A stretch of DNA of 29,375 nucleotides from the IMG/VR virus record IMGVR_UViG_2563366852_000005; one strand, given 5' to 3'. Shown here one piece after another: positions 23,141 to 29,375 of this stretch. Position numbers and translations under genes: made by a program. Numbering within the stretch: the first letter of the stretch is position 1; every line of letters begins with the position of its first letter. This stretch comes from a virus (lineage: Duplodnaviria > Heunggongvirae > Uroviricota > Caudoviricetes). The notes beneath the pieces are model-generated. The model did no database searches, had not been told where the DNA came from, and saw only the letters and a program-made list of their open reading frames with translations.

Positions 23141-23592
23141 TATCCAAGCCACCCGTTTTGCTGTGCACGCTCCATCTGTTCATCTGAATAGTTCCATGCT
23201 CCATCCGTGGCAACCATTGCCCCGCCAGACATCCCCGTCTCTGGTTCATACATAACAGCAAGGCCGAGCTGATGCATAATTTCATGATTAATTCTGAATA
23301 CCAGACCACGCTCACTAAGTTCTTTCCAGTTCACAATCTCATATGCGCCTGTATTAAGCCGCTCAATACTTAGCAAGACATAATCTTCCAGCCAGTCTGA
23401 CAGGTCAGTAACATCTGTTATCCGGGCTTCAACCTTTCGCCCCGTATACACACCCTGCACCCATTCATGCAAAATCAACGTGTCCCCGCGCTCATAATTA
23501 CGGTCATTTTTCCGAAACTCTGCACGTTTATGTCCTTCCAGCACAAGGTCGAAATATTTTGCGTGCAGCTTTACCTCGTGAATTTTTGCCAT
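23140..23592 (-). CDS. ASCH/PUA-like (DUF3850-like) domain protein with a C-terminal HEIMH (HExxH) motif, translationally coupled to A
   Basis: 150 aa from ATG at 23590..23592 overlapping the A stop (TAATG); N-terminal pattern KIHEVKLHAKYFDLVLEGHKRAEFRKNDRNYERGDTLILHEW...YTGR resembles ASCH-like phage proteins; C-terminal INHEIMHQLG. Confidence 0.6.
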   Translation of the reverse strand: MAKIHEVKLHAKYFDLVLEGHKRAEFRKNDRNYERGDTLILHEWVQGVYTGRKVEARITDVTDLSDWLEDYVLLSIERLNTGAYEIVNWKELSERGLVFRINHEIMHQLGLAVMYEPETGMSGGAMVATDGAWNYSDEQMERAQQNGWLG

Positions 23593-25877
23593 TATGTCCA
23601 CTCCATTACTGTTGAGAATCCCGGCCACTCATCAGCGACCGGATACGTGAATTTTTTCCCGTCGTAATTTACGGTTGCCCCACGCGCCAGCGCCTCAAGC
23701 TCCCATCGCTGAGGCCTGATACCGTTCTGAGCAAGGTCAACACGGATACGGGTAATTTGCATTCTTTCCGACCGGGTCAGTCTGGCCGATGGTGCAATTT
23801 CATGCGGTTTTAACGGGCTTCCGTTTCTTTGCTGACGATTTGGTGTTCTCATGTCGTGTTTTAATGCGCCCCTGAGCGCCCTCACGACCTCCTGGTCATT
23901 CCATTCGATAACACCGTCATCAACCAGATTAAGCACTGCTGCGGCGTGTTCAGAAGGTGTGGGAGCCGGTAACGAAGCATCACCGCCGGTGAACTTTCCA
24001 CAGTTATTGACAGGACTCCGAGGCGCGGCGATGCCGCTTTTTAAAGTCAAAGGCTCAACGACCGGAACTTTCGGCACAATGCGCCAGTCCGTCGTTCTGG
24101 TGATATGAATATGTCGCGCGCCGAGATGCGGCGCGTAAATGCCGACCACTCTCTCGACTTCTTCTTCGTACTCGTTAACGTCTTCCGACGGGCTACGGGC
24201 AACCCTGACAGTCTGACAATCGCGCGGGACATTTGCCCCACCCTGCGCGCTGATATACAACGCAAAATCACCACTGTCTGCGGCGGCGCGTGCAGCCTCG
24301 ACGCGCTCGTCAAACTCATCAGCAATGCTGACGCCGCGAGGCAATTTGCGTAGTTCACGGTAAGCCCCCATTGTCGGCAGACCAACCGTTTTAAATTGCG
24401 GAATGCGCCACGTTGACGCCCATGCGGTAACAGCCGCAGCAGTGTCTTTCAGCGGCCTGCCGGTATCGTTATCGAGCTGACCATCCAGTGCATAGCCGTC
24501 GATGTTTTTTGAGATGTATTTCGCGATATACCCCGCAGCACCGCCCCGGTTAAGGTGTTTTGCCTGAAAACGGTTTCGCGCGGCTCCTCTTTCGTCGCCA
24601 TCCTCTTTGAGCGCGTAGCGACGCATGATTTCGATAATCTGGTTACGCTGGCGTGGATTACAAAAAAGCATCATATGCCAGTGCGGCGTTCCGTCGTGGT
24701 GTGGTTCAACAACACGCAAACCGTAGGCCTGTAAATCATTATCCTTGAATGCCGTGCGCATCAGGCTCCAGATACGGCAGAGATAACGCTGCGCATCCTT
24801 TGGATTAAATGCCTCATCGTTCCAGCCGTGATTTAGCTGGACGGTTTTACTTTCGCCTTTTCTGACCTGACGTGTCGGGTGATACTTTGACGGCGCGGTA
24901 AGCGTGATAAACATCCCCACATCACCCTCTGCGGCGGCGTAACGCTCAATACCGGCGATGGTGTTCATCAGCTCCATCCGGCGAATTTCTGGATTTGAAA
25001 TACTGCCCATCACCTTACTGATAAGGTCGATGCGCTCGCCGGTTTCCTTGTTTTCAAGGTCACACGATTTAAGAAATTCCAGATTTGCCTGGCGGCGTGC
25101 ACGTACATCACGAATGGCATGTTTACTGGCATAAGGAGAACGGTCTTTATTGACCTCCCCGACAGCAATCAGTAACGCCTCATGCCAGCGCATGCGCTGG
25201 CCTTTGAGCTGATGAGTCCACCACTCATCGTTAAACAGACGGGCAATGGCAGAATACGCCTGCCTCGTGGTCATCTGTCCTTTACGGTATTTTTTCCAGT
25301 AGAGCGGGGAAATATTGAAAGCACGTGCAGCGCCAGCAACATGACCATACAGGTGAGCCTGCGCCTCATCCGTAAACAGCGATTCTTTTTCGCCATGCGC
25401 ATCCACCCAGGCATCGCTGAGTTCCTCATACATCATGAAAAGCTGCGATGAGATACGGGCGGCAAACTTTTTCAGCTCTTTGTCATTCATTCCAGGCAGG
25501 CGCGCATAGTGGTCACGCTCTGCCAGAAACAGCAACGACGCGTCGGTGTTCATTTCATGGCGCTGATTCACACGCTCAATGCGCGGCCATAAACGACGCT
25601 GAAAAGTGGATGTGAGGAAATAAAACCCGTGCACCGGGCTTTTATTGCGCCGGATGTAGTCATAGCGTGAAGTAAACAGCGAGCGCAAAAAGTAAGGCAG
25701 GCGGTTAATCGTGGATAAAACACCTTGCACCTGACGCATCTCGTCACGTGTAAGGGGTCTTTCGCGCCCGACAGCCTCGCGTGGCGCGTTCCATGCATAA
25801 GCACCGGTAAACGCCTTACCGGTGCCTGCGGCAAATGCTGACGGAGGGACAAAACGCCCGGAGGCTTTAACGGCCAT
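23592..25877 (-). CDS. A: Replication initiation protein A (rolling-circle nickase, 761 aa)
   Basis: MAVKASGRFVPPSAFAAGTGK...; start chosen to match P2 gpA length; ORF-track start at 25919 is an upstream extension. Confidence 0.93.
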   Translation of the reverse strand: MAVKASGRFVPPSAFAAGTGKAFTGAYAWNAPREAVGRERPLTRDEMRQVQGVLSTINRLPYFLRSLFTSRYDYIRRNKSPVHGFYFLTSTFQRRLWPRIERVNQRHEMNTDASLLFLAERDHYARLPGMNDKELKKFAARISSQLFMMYEELSDAWVDAHGEKESLFTDEAQAHLYGHVAGAARAFNISPLYWKKYRKGQMTTRQAYSAIARLFNDEWWTHQLKGQRMRWHEALLIAVGEVNKDRSPYASKHAIRDVRARRQANLEFLKSCDLENKETGERIDLISKVMGSISNPEIRRMELMNTIAGIERYAAAEGDVGMFITLTAPSKYHPTRQVRKGESKTVQLNHGWNDEAFNPKDAQRYLCRIWSLMRTAFKDNDLQAYGLRVVEPHHDGTPHWHMMLFCNPRQRNQIIEIMRRYALKEDGDERGAARNRFQAKHLNRGGAAGYIAKYISKNIDGYALDGQLDNDTGRPLKDTAAAVTAWASTWRIPQFKTVGLPTMGAYRELRKLPRGVSIADEFDERVEAARAAADSGDFALYISAQGGANVPRDCQTVRVARSPSEDVNEYEEEVERVVGIYAPHLGARHIHITRTTDWRIVPKVPVVEPLTLKSGIAAPRSPVNNCGKFTGGDASLPAPTPSEHAAAVLNLVDDGVIEWNDQEVVRALRGALKHDMRTPNRQQRNGSPLKPHEIAPSARLTRSERMQITRIRVDLAQNGIRPQRWELEALARGATVNYDGKKFTYPVADEWPGFSTVMEWT

Positions 25878-26142
25878 ATGAGCCAAAAGCCTCTGAGCAA
25901 CGCTTGCTGAGTTGCTCAACCTGCGCGTTTAAATCAGCAAAAGACTTTGCGCTTCCGGTCAGAATATCGTGATGCATCAGGCCGGAAACGAGCTGGCTTA
26001 ATTTCGGGTAATAACCAACCACCGCCAGCCATTCCTGACCGGCGTTTTTACCGCTTTCCGCTCTCTTTTTCTCGTGGAGAATAAACTGAAAGCTGTCACT
26101 GGTAACGACATAACGTTCGCCAATTTCAATACGAATACTCAT
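25867..26142 (-). CDS. P2 orf83-like hypothetical early protein
   Basis: 91 aa immediately upstream of A, overlapping its start; conserved early-operon position. Confidence 0.75.
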   Translation of the reverse strand: MSIRIEIGERYVVTSDSFQFILHEKKRAESGKNAGQEWLAVVGYYPKLSQLVSGLMHHDILTGSAKSFADLNAQVEQLSKRCSEAFGSYGR

Positions 26143-26952: not shown

Positions 26953-27453
26953 TTAATGCAGATATTGCTCTGGTTTTACCGATGTCAGAATTGTCGGTGC
27001 ATACTCAAACAGACTGAATAATTCACGTAATGCACGGAATAAAGCATCACGCCAGTAACATGATTCTTCATTAATTCGCCAGTATGGCTGGTTGAATTCT
27101 TTTTCTGTCAGTCGTGCATGCATAAATAAAGTACGACGCTGGCTGACTGTTAAAAAACTAATATATGCATACTCACTTGCACCGACCTGACGGCGTTTTG
27201 AGAATGCCCCACGCAATTCATCAATTGCACAAACCAGCCGTTCACGTTCGACATCGTTCATTTCTTCGAAACGCATCGTTGCGTGACGTTGTTTTAACTG
27301 CGCATGGAAGCAAACCGTTAGCCGTTCACGTTCCATCATCTGATTATAATAATCACATGTCTCCTGCCAGCGAGGGACGGCCAGATGCTTACCAATTATC
27401 CGGCGCATAGCTGCTGGCTGTTTTTCGACGAGATTAAGTGTCATCACTGTCAT
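26953..27453 (-). CDS. B: Replication protein B (helicase loader)
   Basis: 166 aa MTVMTLNLVEKQPAAMRRIIGKHLAVPRWQ... Confidence 0.9.
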   Translation of the reverse strand: MTVMTLNLVEKQPAAMRRIIGKHLAVPRWQETCDYYNQMMERERLTVCFHAQLKQRHATMRFEEMNDVERERLVCAIDELRGAFSKRRQVGASEYAYISFLTVSQRRTLFMHARLTEKEFNQPYWRINEESCYWRDALFRALRELFSLFEYAPTILTSVKPEQYLH

Positions 27454-27620
27454 TTCCAGACCCTCCGGCTTTTCAGAAAGGTCAGAGCCTTTTTTAACGG
27501 ACTCTGTTTTTTGGTACGGATAATGATTCCCTTGCGCCCCTTCCCGTGGGTGATGGTGAAGTCAATCGCCCTGGGGCTTTCGTTACGCAGTAACTGAGCA
27601 ATACAACGCGGTTCACTCAT
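27450..27620 (-). CDS. P2 orf78-like small basic protein
   Basis: 56 aa MSEPRCIAQLLRNESPRAIDFTITHGKGRKG...; starts just after the cox stop. Confidence 0.6.
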   Translation of the reverse strand: MSEPRCIAQLLRNESPRAIDFTITHGKGRKGIIIRTKKQSPLKKALTFLKSRRVWK

Positions 27621-27622
27621 AA

Positions 27623-27895
27623 TCACAACCCCATCCACAAAAGCCATGCATCACGCTGTTCAACCGGCCGGTTATAAAACGCCTCACGTACAGCGCGATT
27701 AAACTCTGGAATGAAAACCCATTTCTCACCGGCACGAGCCTTAGGCTTATTTGGATCTCGAAGCTCAATAACCGGTAGCTTGTTAGCCTTGATCATTTCT
27801 GTAACTGCGGTTTTTGGTTTACCCAATAAATCTGCAAATTTTTCCGCATGTACCGCATCGAGCGGGTACTTGATCACATAATCATTCGCTTCCAT
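27623..27895 (-). CDS. cox: Cox: excisionase/directionality factor and repressor of the lysogenic promoter
   Basis: 90 aa, first gene of the early operon, divergent from C; ends ...RDAWLLWMGL, as in P2 Cox. Confidence 0.85.
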   Translation of the reverse strand: MEANDYVIKYPLDAVHAEKFADLLGKPKTAVTEMIKANKLPVIELRDPNKPKARAGEKWVFIPEFNRAVREAFYNRPVEQRDAWLLWMGL

Positions 27896-28031
27896 CTATG
27901 TTACCCTCATAGGATCCAGCCCCTTAAAAACCGCTTGAAACCGTTTAAGCGGCGCTGGACTCGCGCCCGAAAAGGTTCTGGATTAATGACCTTTTTCGGG
28001 GAATATAGTCATTAAGTCAGGACTATGTCAA
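27896..28031. promoter_or_regulatory. Immunity switch region between cox and C (expected Pe/Pc promoters and operators); contains dyads ATTAATGAC/GTCATTAAG and CCGCTT-N-AAGCGG
   Basis: Position between divergent C and cox; inverted repeats at 27982..27990 / 28008..28016 and 27931..27952 read from sequence. Confidence 0.55.
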
Positions 28032-28325
28032 ATGAATATCGCACAGAAATTAAGAGCAATAAGAAAATCGGAAGGGCTAACTCAAGCAAAATTCAGTGAA
28101 ATCAGTGGAATAGCATTAGGGACGCTAAAGAATTACGAGGGAGGGCATCAAGACCCAGGCATCCAAGTTGTGTTGCAAGTCACCAACACACCTCAGTTTC
28201 AAAAATACACACTATGGCTTATGACAGATAAAACAGCGCCGGAAGCAGGACAAATCGCACCGGCTCTCGCACACATTGGGCCAGAGTCAACAGAATCCAG
28301 CCTCTCCGCGAAAAGGATTGGCTAA
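28032..28325 (+). CDS. C: Immunity repressor C (HTH)
   Basis: 97 aa; C-terminal half ...TPQFQKYTLWLMTDKTAPEAGQIAPALAH... resembles P2 C; N-terminal part divergent. Confidence 0.85.
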   Translation: MNIAQKLRAIRKSEGLTQAKFSEISGIALGTLKNYEGGHQDPGIQVVLQVTNTPQFQKYTLWLMTDKTAPEAGQIAPALAHIGPESTESSLSAKRIG

Positions 28326-28394
28326 CTCTATATAAAGATTACATTTTCACCATTTGCTTCCAGAATGGTGAATACAGCGCCGGAGGGCTTTCTT

Positions 28395-29375
28395 ATGGCA
28401 ATTAAGAAGCTCGATGATGGTCGCTATGAAGTGGACATTAGACCTCGCGGTCGCGATGGAAAACGCATCCGCAGGAAGTTTGAGAGAAAGGCTGAAGCAG
28501 TTGCATTTGAGCGATACACAATTGCCAATGCCAGCCAGAAAGAATGGGGAGGCCAGCGAGCAGACCGCCGAACGTTGACTGAGTTATTGGACATCTGGTG
28601 GAAATATCACGGACAAAACCATGAGCATGGAACAAAAGAGTTTAATCATCTGCTCAAAACTATCAGTGGAATAGGTGATATACCAGTTAGCCGGATGAGT
28701 AAAAGGGCTTTGATGGATTATCGCTCCGTGCGGCTACGTGATGGCATTAGTGCTGCAACGATAAATCGTGACATGTACCGATTGTCAGGCATGTTCACTA
28801 AATTAATTCAATTGGATGAATTTTCCGGGCAACATCCAATTCACGGACTGCCGCCACTGGCGGAGACCAATCCGGAAATGACGTTTCTGGAAAAATCAGA
28901 AATCGAAAAACTGTTAAATGTTTTGGTTGGTGATGACTTACTGGTCGCGCTTTTATGCCTAAGCACTGGCGGAAGATGGACGGAAGTTGCCACGCTAAAA
29001 CCAGCGCAGATTACAAGTTGTAGAGTTACCTTTTTGAAAACCAAAAACGGTAAAAAGCGAACCGTGCCGATTTCTGAGGAACTAGAGAAAAAAGTTAAAG
29101 AGGAGGCCAGCGCCAAATTGTTCAAAGTTGATTATGAGAAGTTTTGCGGGATTTTACGCAGAGTGAAACCTGATATACCACCCAATCAGGCAACCCACAT
29201 CCTGCGGCATACATTCGCAAGCCATTTCATGATGAATGGGGGCAATATAATTGCACTGCAACAGATTCTGGGACATGCGAGCATCCAGCAGACGATGGCC
29301 TACGCGCATCTTGCGCCGGACTACCTACAGAATGCCGTCGCGCTGAATCCTCTAAAAGGCGGAGTGACGTTATAA
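28395..29375 (+). CDS. int: Tyrosine integrase (P2 Int-like); alternative upstream ATG at 28365
   Basis: MAIKKLDDGRYEVDIRPRGRDGKRIRRKF...; C-terminal HxxR...Y catalytic region (ILRHTFASHF...AYAHL); stop is the last codon of the window. Confidence 0.92.
   Translation: MAIKKLDDGRYEVDIRPRGRDGKRIRRKFERKAEAVAFERYTIANASQKEWGGQRADRRTLTELLDIWWKYHGQNHEHGTKEFNHLLKTISGIGDIPVSRMSKRALMDYRSVRLRDGISAATINRDMYRLSGMFTKLIQLDEFSGQHPIHGLPPLAETNPEMTFLEKSEIEKLLNVLVGDDLLVALLCLSTGGRWTEVATLKPAQITSCRVTFLKTKNGKKRTVPISEELEKKVKEEASAKLFKVDYEKFCGILRRVKPDIPPNQATHILRHTFASHFMMNGGNIIALQQILGHASIQQTMAYAHLAPDYLQNAVALNPLKGGVTL

Follow-up and report, generated by a model that had tools for sequence, protein, structure and literature searches.

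The cox–C spacer and its facing promoters

The DNA analysed here, a stretch of 29,375 nucleotides referred to as the window, is a P2-like (Peduovirus) prophage, an assignment made because of its gene order and because Peduovirus genomes match its first 25 kb at 95-96% identity. The genes and promoter elements around the spacer are as follows.

23592-25919, minus strand: A
26953-27453, minus strand: B
27450-27647, minus strand: orf78-like gene, 65 aa (PHROG 273 at 4e-40, a family of unknown function)
27623-27895, minus strand: cox, 90 aa (Pfam Phage_Cox at 7.5e-25; PHROG 272 at 4.9e-47)
27899-27907, plus strand: predicted Pc, an extended -10 element TGtTACCCT (from the conserved motif and alignment with the annotated Wφ Pc)
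about 27912, plus strand: predicted Pc start, followed by GATC at 27913-27916 (in Wφ, the A that precedes GATC is the last base of the annotated Pc interval)
27994-27996, minus strand: predicted Pe transcription start (placed by its distance from the -10 and by comparison with the homologous Pe annotation of Wφ)
28002-28007, minus strand: Pe -10, TATATT (promoter scan)
28026-28031, minus strand: Pe -35, TTGACA, abutting the C start codon (promoter scan)
28032-28325, plus strand: C, P2-type immunity repressor, 97 aa (HTH_3; PHROG 147 at 4e-39; P2 C structures)
28365-29375, plus strand: int, integrase, second gene of the lysogenic operon (Pfam Int_N and Phage_integrase)

The spacer between cox and C occupies 136 bp (27896-28031), and its edges coincide exactly with the start codons of the two genes. 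The product of cox is the lytic repressor and excisionase, and the gene heads the early operon. Cox is 99% identical to its counterpart in Yersinia phage P37, 88% to that of L-413C, 84% to that of Wφ and 44% to that of P2. C is a P2 C homologue of the ~100-aa class with an N-terminal helix-turn-helix; it matches the P2 C structures 2XCJ/2L49 over residues 3-96 (phmmer E=6e-25), and its identity is 96% to P37 C, 71% to Wφ C, 65% to L-413C C and 46% to P2 C. The int ORF as listed stops at the final base of the window. The orf78-like gene lies between cox and B and overlaps the 3' end of cox by 25 nt.

P37 shares 95% identity with the cox–C block, and other phages ~78% or less; when C and the spacer are taken alone, the identity to P37 is again 95% and that to the next phages is 72-75%. 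C plus spacer found a match in 53 of 5426 complete E. coli genomes, the best at 95%. The comparisons below draw on C relatives encoded at 13 genome loci and on 80 viral contigs. At six of these loci (L006, L028, L040, L044, L014 and L026) the first long opposite-strand ORF upstream of C, as picked by script, is not Cox-like, and the D1 and Pc motifs described below are kept; this may be an artefact of ORF picking, or cox may have been replaced or displaced.

Based on the promoter scan, Pe consists of TTGACA, an 18-nt spacer and TATATT, with 11 of 12 consensus matches. It is the sole site found by the scan in 27800-28150, where 0.5 is expected per shuffle. The predicted Pc faces it from the other end of the spacer. 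The motif TGnTAnnnT is present at the Pc position in 44 of 48 distinct relatives, and in the window it has no usable -35. The predicted Pc overlaps the Shine-Dalgarno sequence of cox, which is on the opposite strand, and this overlap alone could explain part of the conservation of the motif. From the predicted starts, the Pe and Pc transcripts would overlap by ~84 nt; the overlap in Wφ is 82 nt (PMC1904263). The earlier note had read the region between cox and C as an immunity switch. Its gene order, the 136-bp spacer, Pe as located by the scan, Pc as predicted and the position of the operator are those of a P2-type Pe/Pc switch, in agreement with that reading.

Of 48 distinct relatives, 37 have a GATC (Dam site) exactly 5 nt past the predicted Pc -10, very divergent spacer types included. 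In the Pc transcript this site would span about +2 to +5; P2 is without it. The position hints that repressor synthesis may respond to methylation, or that the first transcribed bases are constrained.

The palindrome at the 5' end of the predicted Pc transcript

Two dyads had been placed in the spacer by the earlier note as candidate operators. Both are present where they had been placed, with the refinement that the first is made of 16-bp units and not of 9-mers. The second, CCGCTT/AAGCGG, lies inside a larger palindrome.

27916-27958, unstranded: D1, palindrome with CCAGC/GCTGG as closing arms; predicted Cox operator in the 5'-terminal part of the Pc transcript

The closing arms of D1 are CCAGC at 27916-27920 and GCTGG at 27954-27958. 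Between them are CCGCTT (27931-27936) and AAGCGG (27947-27952), the pairing of which extends to 9 bp with one G.T (27931-27939 with 27944-27952). D1 also holds a direct repeat in 10-bp phase, AAACCGCTT at 27928-27936 and AAACCGTTT at 27938-27946, and a third, degenerate unit is visible by eye. Repeats phased at ~10 bp are typical of the sites of recombination directionality factors (PMC7498355). A direct repeat of 12 nt between Pe and Pc is reported to be bound by Wφ Cox (PMC5009727), and this repeat aligns to the D1 interval. Among the relatives, the sequence type of D1 tracks the helix-turn-helix type of Cox and not the type of C. Because of the position of the Wφ Cox operator and this tracking, we assign D1 to the Cox/Pc module, in which it is probably the Cox operator. 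As for the second dyad of the earlier note, CCGCTT/AAGCGG more likely belongs to the Cox operator or the Pc leader than to a C operator.

A different role for D1 is that of an RNA element in the main, either as a stem-loop that lies 3-4 nt into the Pc transcript and stabilises the C-int mRNA or as sense and antisense hairpins through which the Pe and Pc RNAs would pair. The stem begins right after the predicted Pc start, and D1 folds well on both strands, with z = -3.3 on each. The closing stem shows apparent compensatory changes when the relatives are compared by eye (CCAGTCCC/GGGACTGG in Wφ, CCAACCC/GGGTTGG in Serratia, CCAGAC/GTCTGG in L052), and the arms pair better with their own partner than when swapped between loci (6.5 versus 5.5 of 8). 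These arms were compared by anchors, as a MAFFT alignment of D1 breaks the register of the inner hairpin. Against a mainly RNA role, the mismatches in D1 favour no strand (10 G.U versus 11 A.C), the inner hairpin of 6-9 bp is not in a conserved register, the Wφ Cox repeat aligns to D1, and the repeats in its loop are in 10-bp phase. We regard such a role as unlikely for D1 as its main function, though it has more in its favour than any other alternative considered here; the RNA-element and Cox-operator roles are compatible and do not exclude each other.

Two further readings were rejected. An intrinsic terminator or attenuator in the Pe leader, made of the hairpin at 27931-27952 followed by TTTTT on the minus strand, was negative in the scan; the hairpin has a 10-nt loop, and the T run is absent in relatives. 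The P2 cox-box consensus TTAAA(G/C)NC(A/C) gave only two one-mismatch matches in the spacer, at 27924 and 27983, and was dropped as a guide as it is too degenerate and P2 Cox shares only 44% identity with the Cox of the window. Over the full 29 kb, TTAAASNCM is found within one mismatch 103 times against 66.5 +/- 7.8 in shuffles, an excess that is probably a composition or codon effect.

Predicted C sites and their co-variation with the repressor

The first dyad lies at the other end of the spacer, around the -10 hexamer of Pe.

27966-28000, unstranded: D2, inverted repeat CCCGAAAAGG / CCTTTTTCGGG enclosing O2, conserved in relatives
27975-27990, unstranded: O2, promoter-distal predicted C site GTTCTGGATTAATGAC, at Pe +6 to +21
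28008-28023, unstranded: O1, promoter-proximal predicted C site GTCATTAAGTCAGGAC, filling the Pe -10/-35 spacer

The 9-nt pair at its core, ATTAATGAC at 27982-27990 and GTCATTAAG at 28008-28016, is complementary at 8 of 9 positions, with 17 bp between the arms and 26 bp from start to start. By itself this pair is within chance and was rejected as stand-alone evidence, since 281 of 1000 dinucleotide-preserving shuffles of the 136-bp spacer contained one at least as good. With 16-nt arms, O1 and O2 agree at 13 of 16 positions in the inverted orientation and at 9 of 16 in the direct one, a level reached in 5 of 1000 shuffles. Nothing else in the 29 kb of the window matches O1 as well as O2 does, and distal copies of the site are absent. 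With 33 bp from centre to centre, the sites flank the Pe -10 at 28002-28007. The flanking of the Pe -10 or -35 by two repressor sites is thereby found in the window, whereas the direct, non-palindromic repeats of a P2-type switch are not, the window sites being inverted. The GTCATT hexamers of the two sites point towards each other from either side of the -10, in a mirror arrangement; the one in O2 is read on the minus strand (27990-27985), and O1 carries the C ribosome-binding site AGGA at 28019-28022. O1 is also flanked by a perfect short palindrome, ATAGTC...GACTAT (28004-28026), which is found in the closest relatives only and forms a local hairpin over part of the C ribosome-binding site.

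The arrangement was then followed across relatives. A second site was present 31-35 bp from O1 in all 45 de-duplicated operator variants in which O1 starts with GT, a filter that left out the Wφ-type variants with their better direct match. The two sites are inverted in 29 of these variants, direct in 5 and ambiguous in 11, the ambiguous ones having mostly a palindromic core as in L-413C (CCTATATAGG). For 24 distinct inverted-type relatives, 83% of cells were complementary compared with 70% after shuffling (0 of 500 shuffles), a percentage that is inflated by the pre-selection of these loci as better inverted than direct. In the same 24, the covariation score was 0.425 versus 0.20 in shuffles (again 0 of 500), and double changes occurred at 11 of 16 positions. 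Two results are independent of the pre-selection: the slid registers, in which the same relatives were 28-42% complementary, and the co-variation of protein and DNA given below. Positions 8-10 of the sites are not symmetric, and each site therefore reads as 6+4+6, with a GTCATT specificity hexamer, a variable centre and a less specific CAG(G/A)AC. The outer half of O1 (AGGAC) doubles as the C ribosome-binding site, and part of its conservation thus has another cause.

Substitutions in C and in the sites go together at two residues. Counted over relatives that are phylogenetically related, and so not as independent events, G30 occurs with A at base 4 in 18 of 18 cases at O1 and 17 of 18 at O2, and S30 with T or C at base 4 in 17 of 17; Q40 occurs with TT at bases 5-6 in 10 of 11 cases at O1 and in 8 of 11 at both sites, K40 with CC in 6 of 6, and R40 with GC or TC in 3 of 3. 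Wφ, with G30, K40 and GTCACC, was filtered out of the scripted count and fits the pattern by eye. Because the arms co-vary in the inverted register and because residues 30 and 40 track bases 4-6, we assign O1 and O2 as the predicted C operator. The specificity is proposed to reside mainly in residues G30, which would read the A at base 4, and Q40, which would read the TT at bases 5-6. The first dyad of the earlier note thus stands as a candidate operator, flanking the Pe -10 as P2 O1/O2 do.

The symmetry of the pair could also be that of an RNA. In such a case the arm GGUUCUGGAUUAAUGAC of the Pc transcript would pair with GUCAUUAAGUCAGGAC and hide the C ribosome-binding site AGGA at 28019-28022, resulting in translational control of C. 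An isolated 55-nt O2/O1 segment does fold on the plus strand at -17.9 kcal/mol (z = -3.6) with AGGA buried, two of the three arm mismatches are G.U on that strand, and across relatives the mismatches compatible with G.U outnumber A.C by 34 to 19. The minus strand of the segment, however, has an equal z of -3.55, and the G.U excess comes mostly from positions 3 and 5, which face the constrained ribosome-binding site. The minimum-energy fold of the full Pc leader consists of three local hairpins and not of the long-range O2/O1 helix. An RNA helix leaves unexplained why bases 4-6 follow C residues 30 and 40, and in relatives with the same C recognition helix (L008 and L011, described below) O2 is direct, so that the hairpin is impossible; a protein site can account for these loci. 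We consider translational control by this dyad improbable. Strand-specific RNA structure in general was rejected as well, the 129-nt leader having z of -3.4 and -2.6 on the two strands and its sub-elements being equal. The natural Pe leader alone is unremarkable (z = -0.77), and the asymmetry of G.U over A.C is mild for the operator and absent for D1.

That the dyads are chance or by-product symmetry, and that the true C operator is a direct-repeat pair at another point of the spacer, the arrangement seen in P2, P2 Hy dis and Wφ, draws on the 28% of shuffles that equal the 9-mer pair and on a literature of direct repeats only for the P2-type family (PMC1904268, PMC2995052), yet it is very improbable, as the best direct 16-mer pair in the spacer reaches 10/16, which is the modal shuffle value, no direct repeat is conserved across the class, and the inverted pair co-varies at a fixed 31-35 bp exactly at the positions of the Wφ and P2 half-sites.

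Orientation of the sites and relation to known switches

P2-type repressors have been described with direct-repeat operators only (PMC1904268, PMC2995052), and all seven immunity classes known at the time are reported to use direct repeats (PMC2995052). The inverted arrangement of O1 and O2 departs from this rule. Among the relatives, Sodalis L008 and Arsenophonus L011 carry direct repeats (13/16 direct) and a C with the recognition helix GIALGTLKNYEGGHQE, as in the window. The arms of D2, AAAAGG...CCTTTT, bound a 14-bp loop, the inversion of which separates the direct from the inverted types. The window loop compares with those of direct-type loci as follows.

Arsenophonus L011 (direct): 12/14 when inverted, 6/14 as found
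Sodalis L008 (direct): 11/14 when inverted, 6/14 as found
Wφ (direct): 10/14 when inverted, 5/14 as found

The window loop matches the direct-type loops far better when inverted, and therefore a single inversion of the loop of a quasi-palindrome would account for the change of architecture; the mirror-image operators apparently derive from such a small inversion. The D2 arms show apparent compensatory variants by eye, ATAAG/CTTAT in L046 and CCTGCATGG/CCTACAGG in L011. The Pe transcript would start inside a D2 arm and so have a 5'-terminal hairpin.

These comparisons bear on what may be called a textbook oddity. P2 C forms a symmetric dimer that reaches across two neighbouring major grooves (PMC2995052). 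The sequences it is said to recognise are nevertheless direct repeats without palindromic symmetry, and how it does so is left open in the structural papers. The window and the related loci amount to a natural series: the repressor specificity is one, and the sites are either direct or mirror-image. This favours a model of one dimer on each 16-bp pseudo-palindromic site, in which orientation is unimportant, and suggests a recognition code in which residue 30 goes with base 4 and residue 40 with bases 5-6. Wφ C has been reported to bind single half-sites independently, and changed spacing is tolerated in vivo (PMC1904263). Taken as a whole, the proposal would be that direct repeats are no family trait, that the subfamily sampled (C at least ~63% identical to window C) has mostly mirror-image 16-bp dimer sites, and that O2 has been flipped among close relatives with a shared recognition helix through inversion of the 14-bp loop. 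We see the case for this joint proposal as evenly balanced. If it is true, each site is an independent dimer site whose relative orientation is irrelevant to repression, and inversion by template switching is an evolutionary route for P2-type operators.

The types of C and operator on one side and of Cox and D1 on the other are reassorted among relatives. L024 and L026 have the C specificity of the window with a different Cox and D1, L040 has a Wφ-like C with a non-Wφ D1, and L022 is also among the reassorted loci. Because the two sets reassort, a recombination joint is implied between D1 and O2, at about 27958-27966.

Then, how would the spacer work? With a probability of about 0.75, we read it as a bistable P2-type switch with facing promoters and two repressors, in which mirror-image operators O1 and O2 would serve C and D1 would serve Cox. 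During lysogeny, the weak extended -10 promoter Pc would transcribe C and int rightward. As a P2-type helix-turn-helix repressor, C would dimerise and bend DNA; one dimer would bind each 16-bp pseudo-palindromic site, and occupation of both O1 and O2 would shut Pe and silence cox, B and A. C would also repress an incoming phage that carries the same operators. During lytic growth, the strong leftward Pe would make Cox, which most likely binds the 10-bp-phased repeats in D1, just downstream of the Pc start, and so shuts Pc. Convergent transcription over the ~84-nt overlap may add to the shutdown of Pc.

Among known systems, P37 (MT239398) is the closest. Its O1 and O2 are identical to those of the window, its D1 is identical but for one base, and its T run between O2 and the -10 (window 27991-27995) is shorter by one base, which places the centres 32 bp apart instead of 33 bp. 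The P37 record annotates a longer C ORF of 113 aa, with a start upstream of the ATG used for window C; we found no published analysis of the P37 switch. One immunity group is defined by C identity of at least 95% (PMC3448106), and by this rule P37 and about 40 E. coli prophages share the immunity type of the window, the C proteins of P37 and the window being 96% identical. The window prophage should be homoimmune with P37. The immunity type is common to P37 and ~1% of complete E. coli genomes, which is of use in predictions of superinfection exclusion among Peduovirus prophages.

In Wφ (immunity class III) the gene order and facing promoters are the same, Pe is built in the same way with identical hexamers (TTGACA / TATATT), and the operator sites flank the -10 about three helical turns apart, with centres at 34 bp compared with 33 bp in the window (PMC1904263, PMC1904268). 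The predicted base-reading residues of window C (L29, K33, N34 and H39) are those of Wφ C, and the recognition helices are almost identical, differing only by L32V and G37S; C is 71% and Cox 84% identical. The sites differ, however. Those of Wφ are direct repeats of GTCACCAATA with the hexamer GTCACC, two copies 34 bp apart, whereas those of the window are inverted with GTCATT, and no copy of GTCACCAATA within two mismatches is present in the Pe region. Residue 40 of C is Q in the window and K in Wφ. The D1 repeats also differ from the Wφ 12-nt Cox repeat, and the spacer of 136 bp, compared with 152 bp in Wφ, is without the Wφ Pc -35 insert. The window thus falls outside class III, and it is probably heteroimmune to Wφ, L-413C and SI7. 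For Wφ this is likely but less secure, because it depends on the Q40/K40 difference and the operator sequence. Salmonella phage SI7, with a C 80% identical, was considered as a homoimmune relative and rejected, as its sites start with GTCAC(T/A)A; the sequence of L027, identical to SI7, matches at 10/16 in the direct and 9/16 in the inverted orientation.

P2 (immunity class I) shares the C-int operon facing cox-B-A, a C of the same length class and a Pe of the same build, the -35 of which likewise abuts the C start codon. Its two repressor sites flank the Pe -10 as in the window, with O1 at the same location (PMC1904268). The P2 operators are 8-bp direct repeats of GTTTAGAT 22 bp apart, a pair absent from the window, where no copy within one mismatch occurs in 27850-28100. 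The spacer is 114 bp with an overlap of ~35 nt in P2, as compared with 136 bp and ~84 nt in the window, and the cox-box consensus of P2 is not informative for the window. The residues proposed to read bases in P2 C are Y31, S35, Y36 and R41 (PMC2995052); all four differ in window C (L29, K33, N34 and H39), and the proteins are 46% identical overall. The earlier note had claimed that C differs from P2 C in its DNA-reading region and that the element may be heteroimmune to P2, and had named identity of C and operators to those of P2 as the outcome that would speak against it. The first claim is borne out by these residues, that identity is absent, the window lies outside class I, and heteroimmunity to P2 is well supported by the comparison of protein and half-site.

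The operators of lambdoid and 186-type phages are inverted repeats bound by symmetric dimers, and the window sites are likewise pseudo-palindromic, with two-fold symmetry of the pair. In contrast to those phages, the window has a 97-aa single-domain repressor without a separate oligomerisation domain, has only two sites, and has a second repressor, Cox, with a predicted operator of its own. A 186-type CI switch, with a two-domain CI of ~190 aa, Apl and distal sites, was ruled out on the single-domain repressor and the absence of distal site copies in the window. The predicted mirror-image operators and their apparent origin by inversion are the sole non-routine feature of what is otherwise an ordinary P2-type switch.
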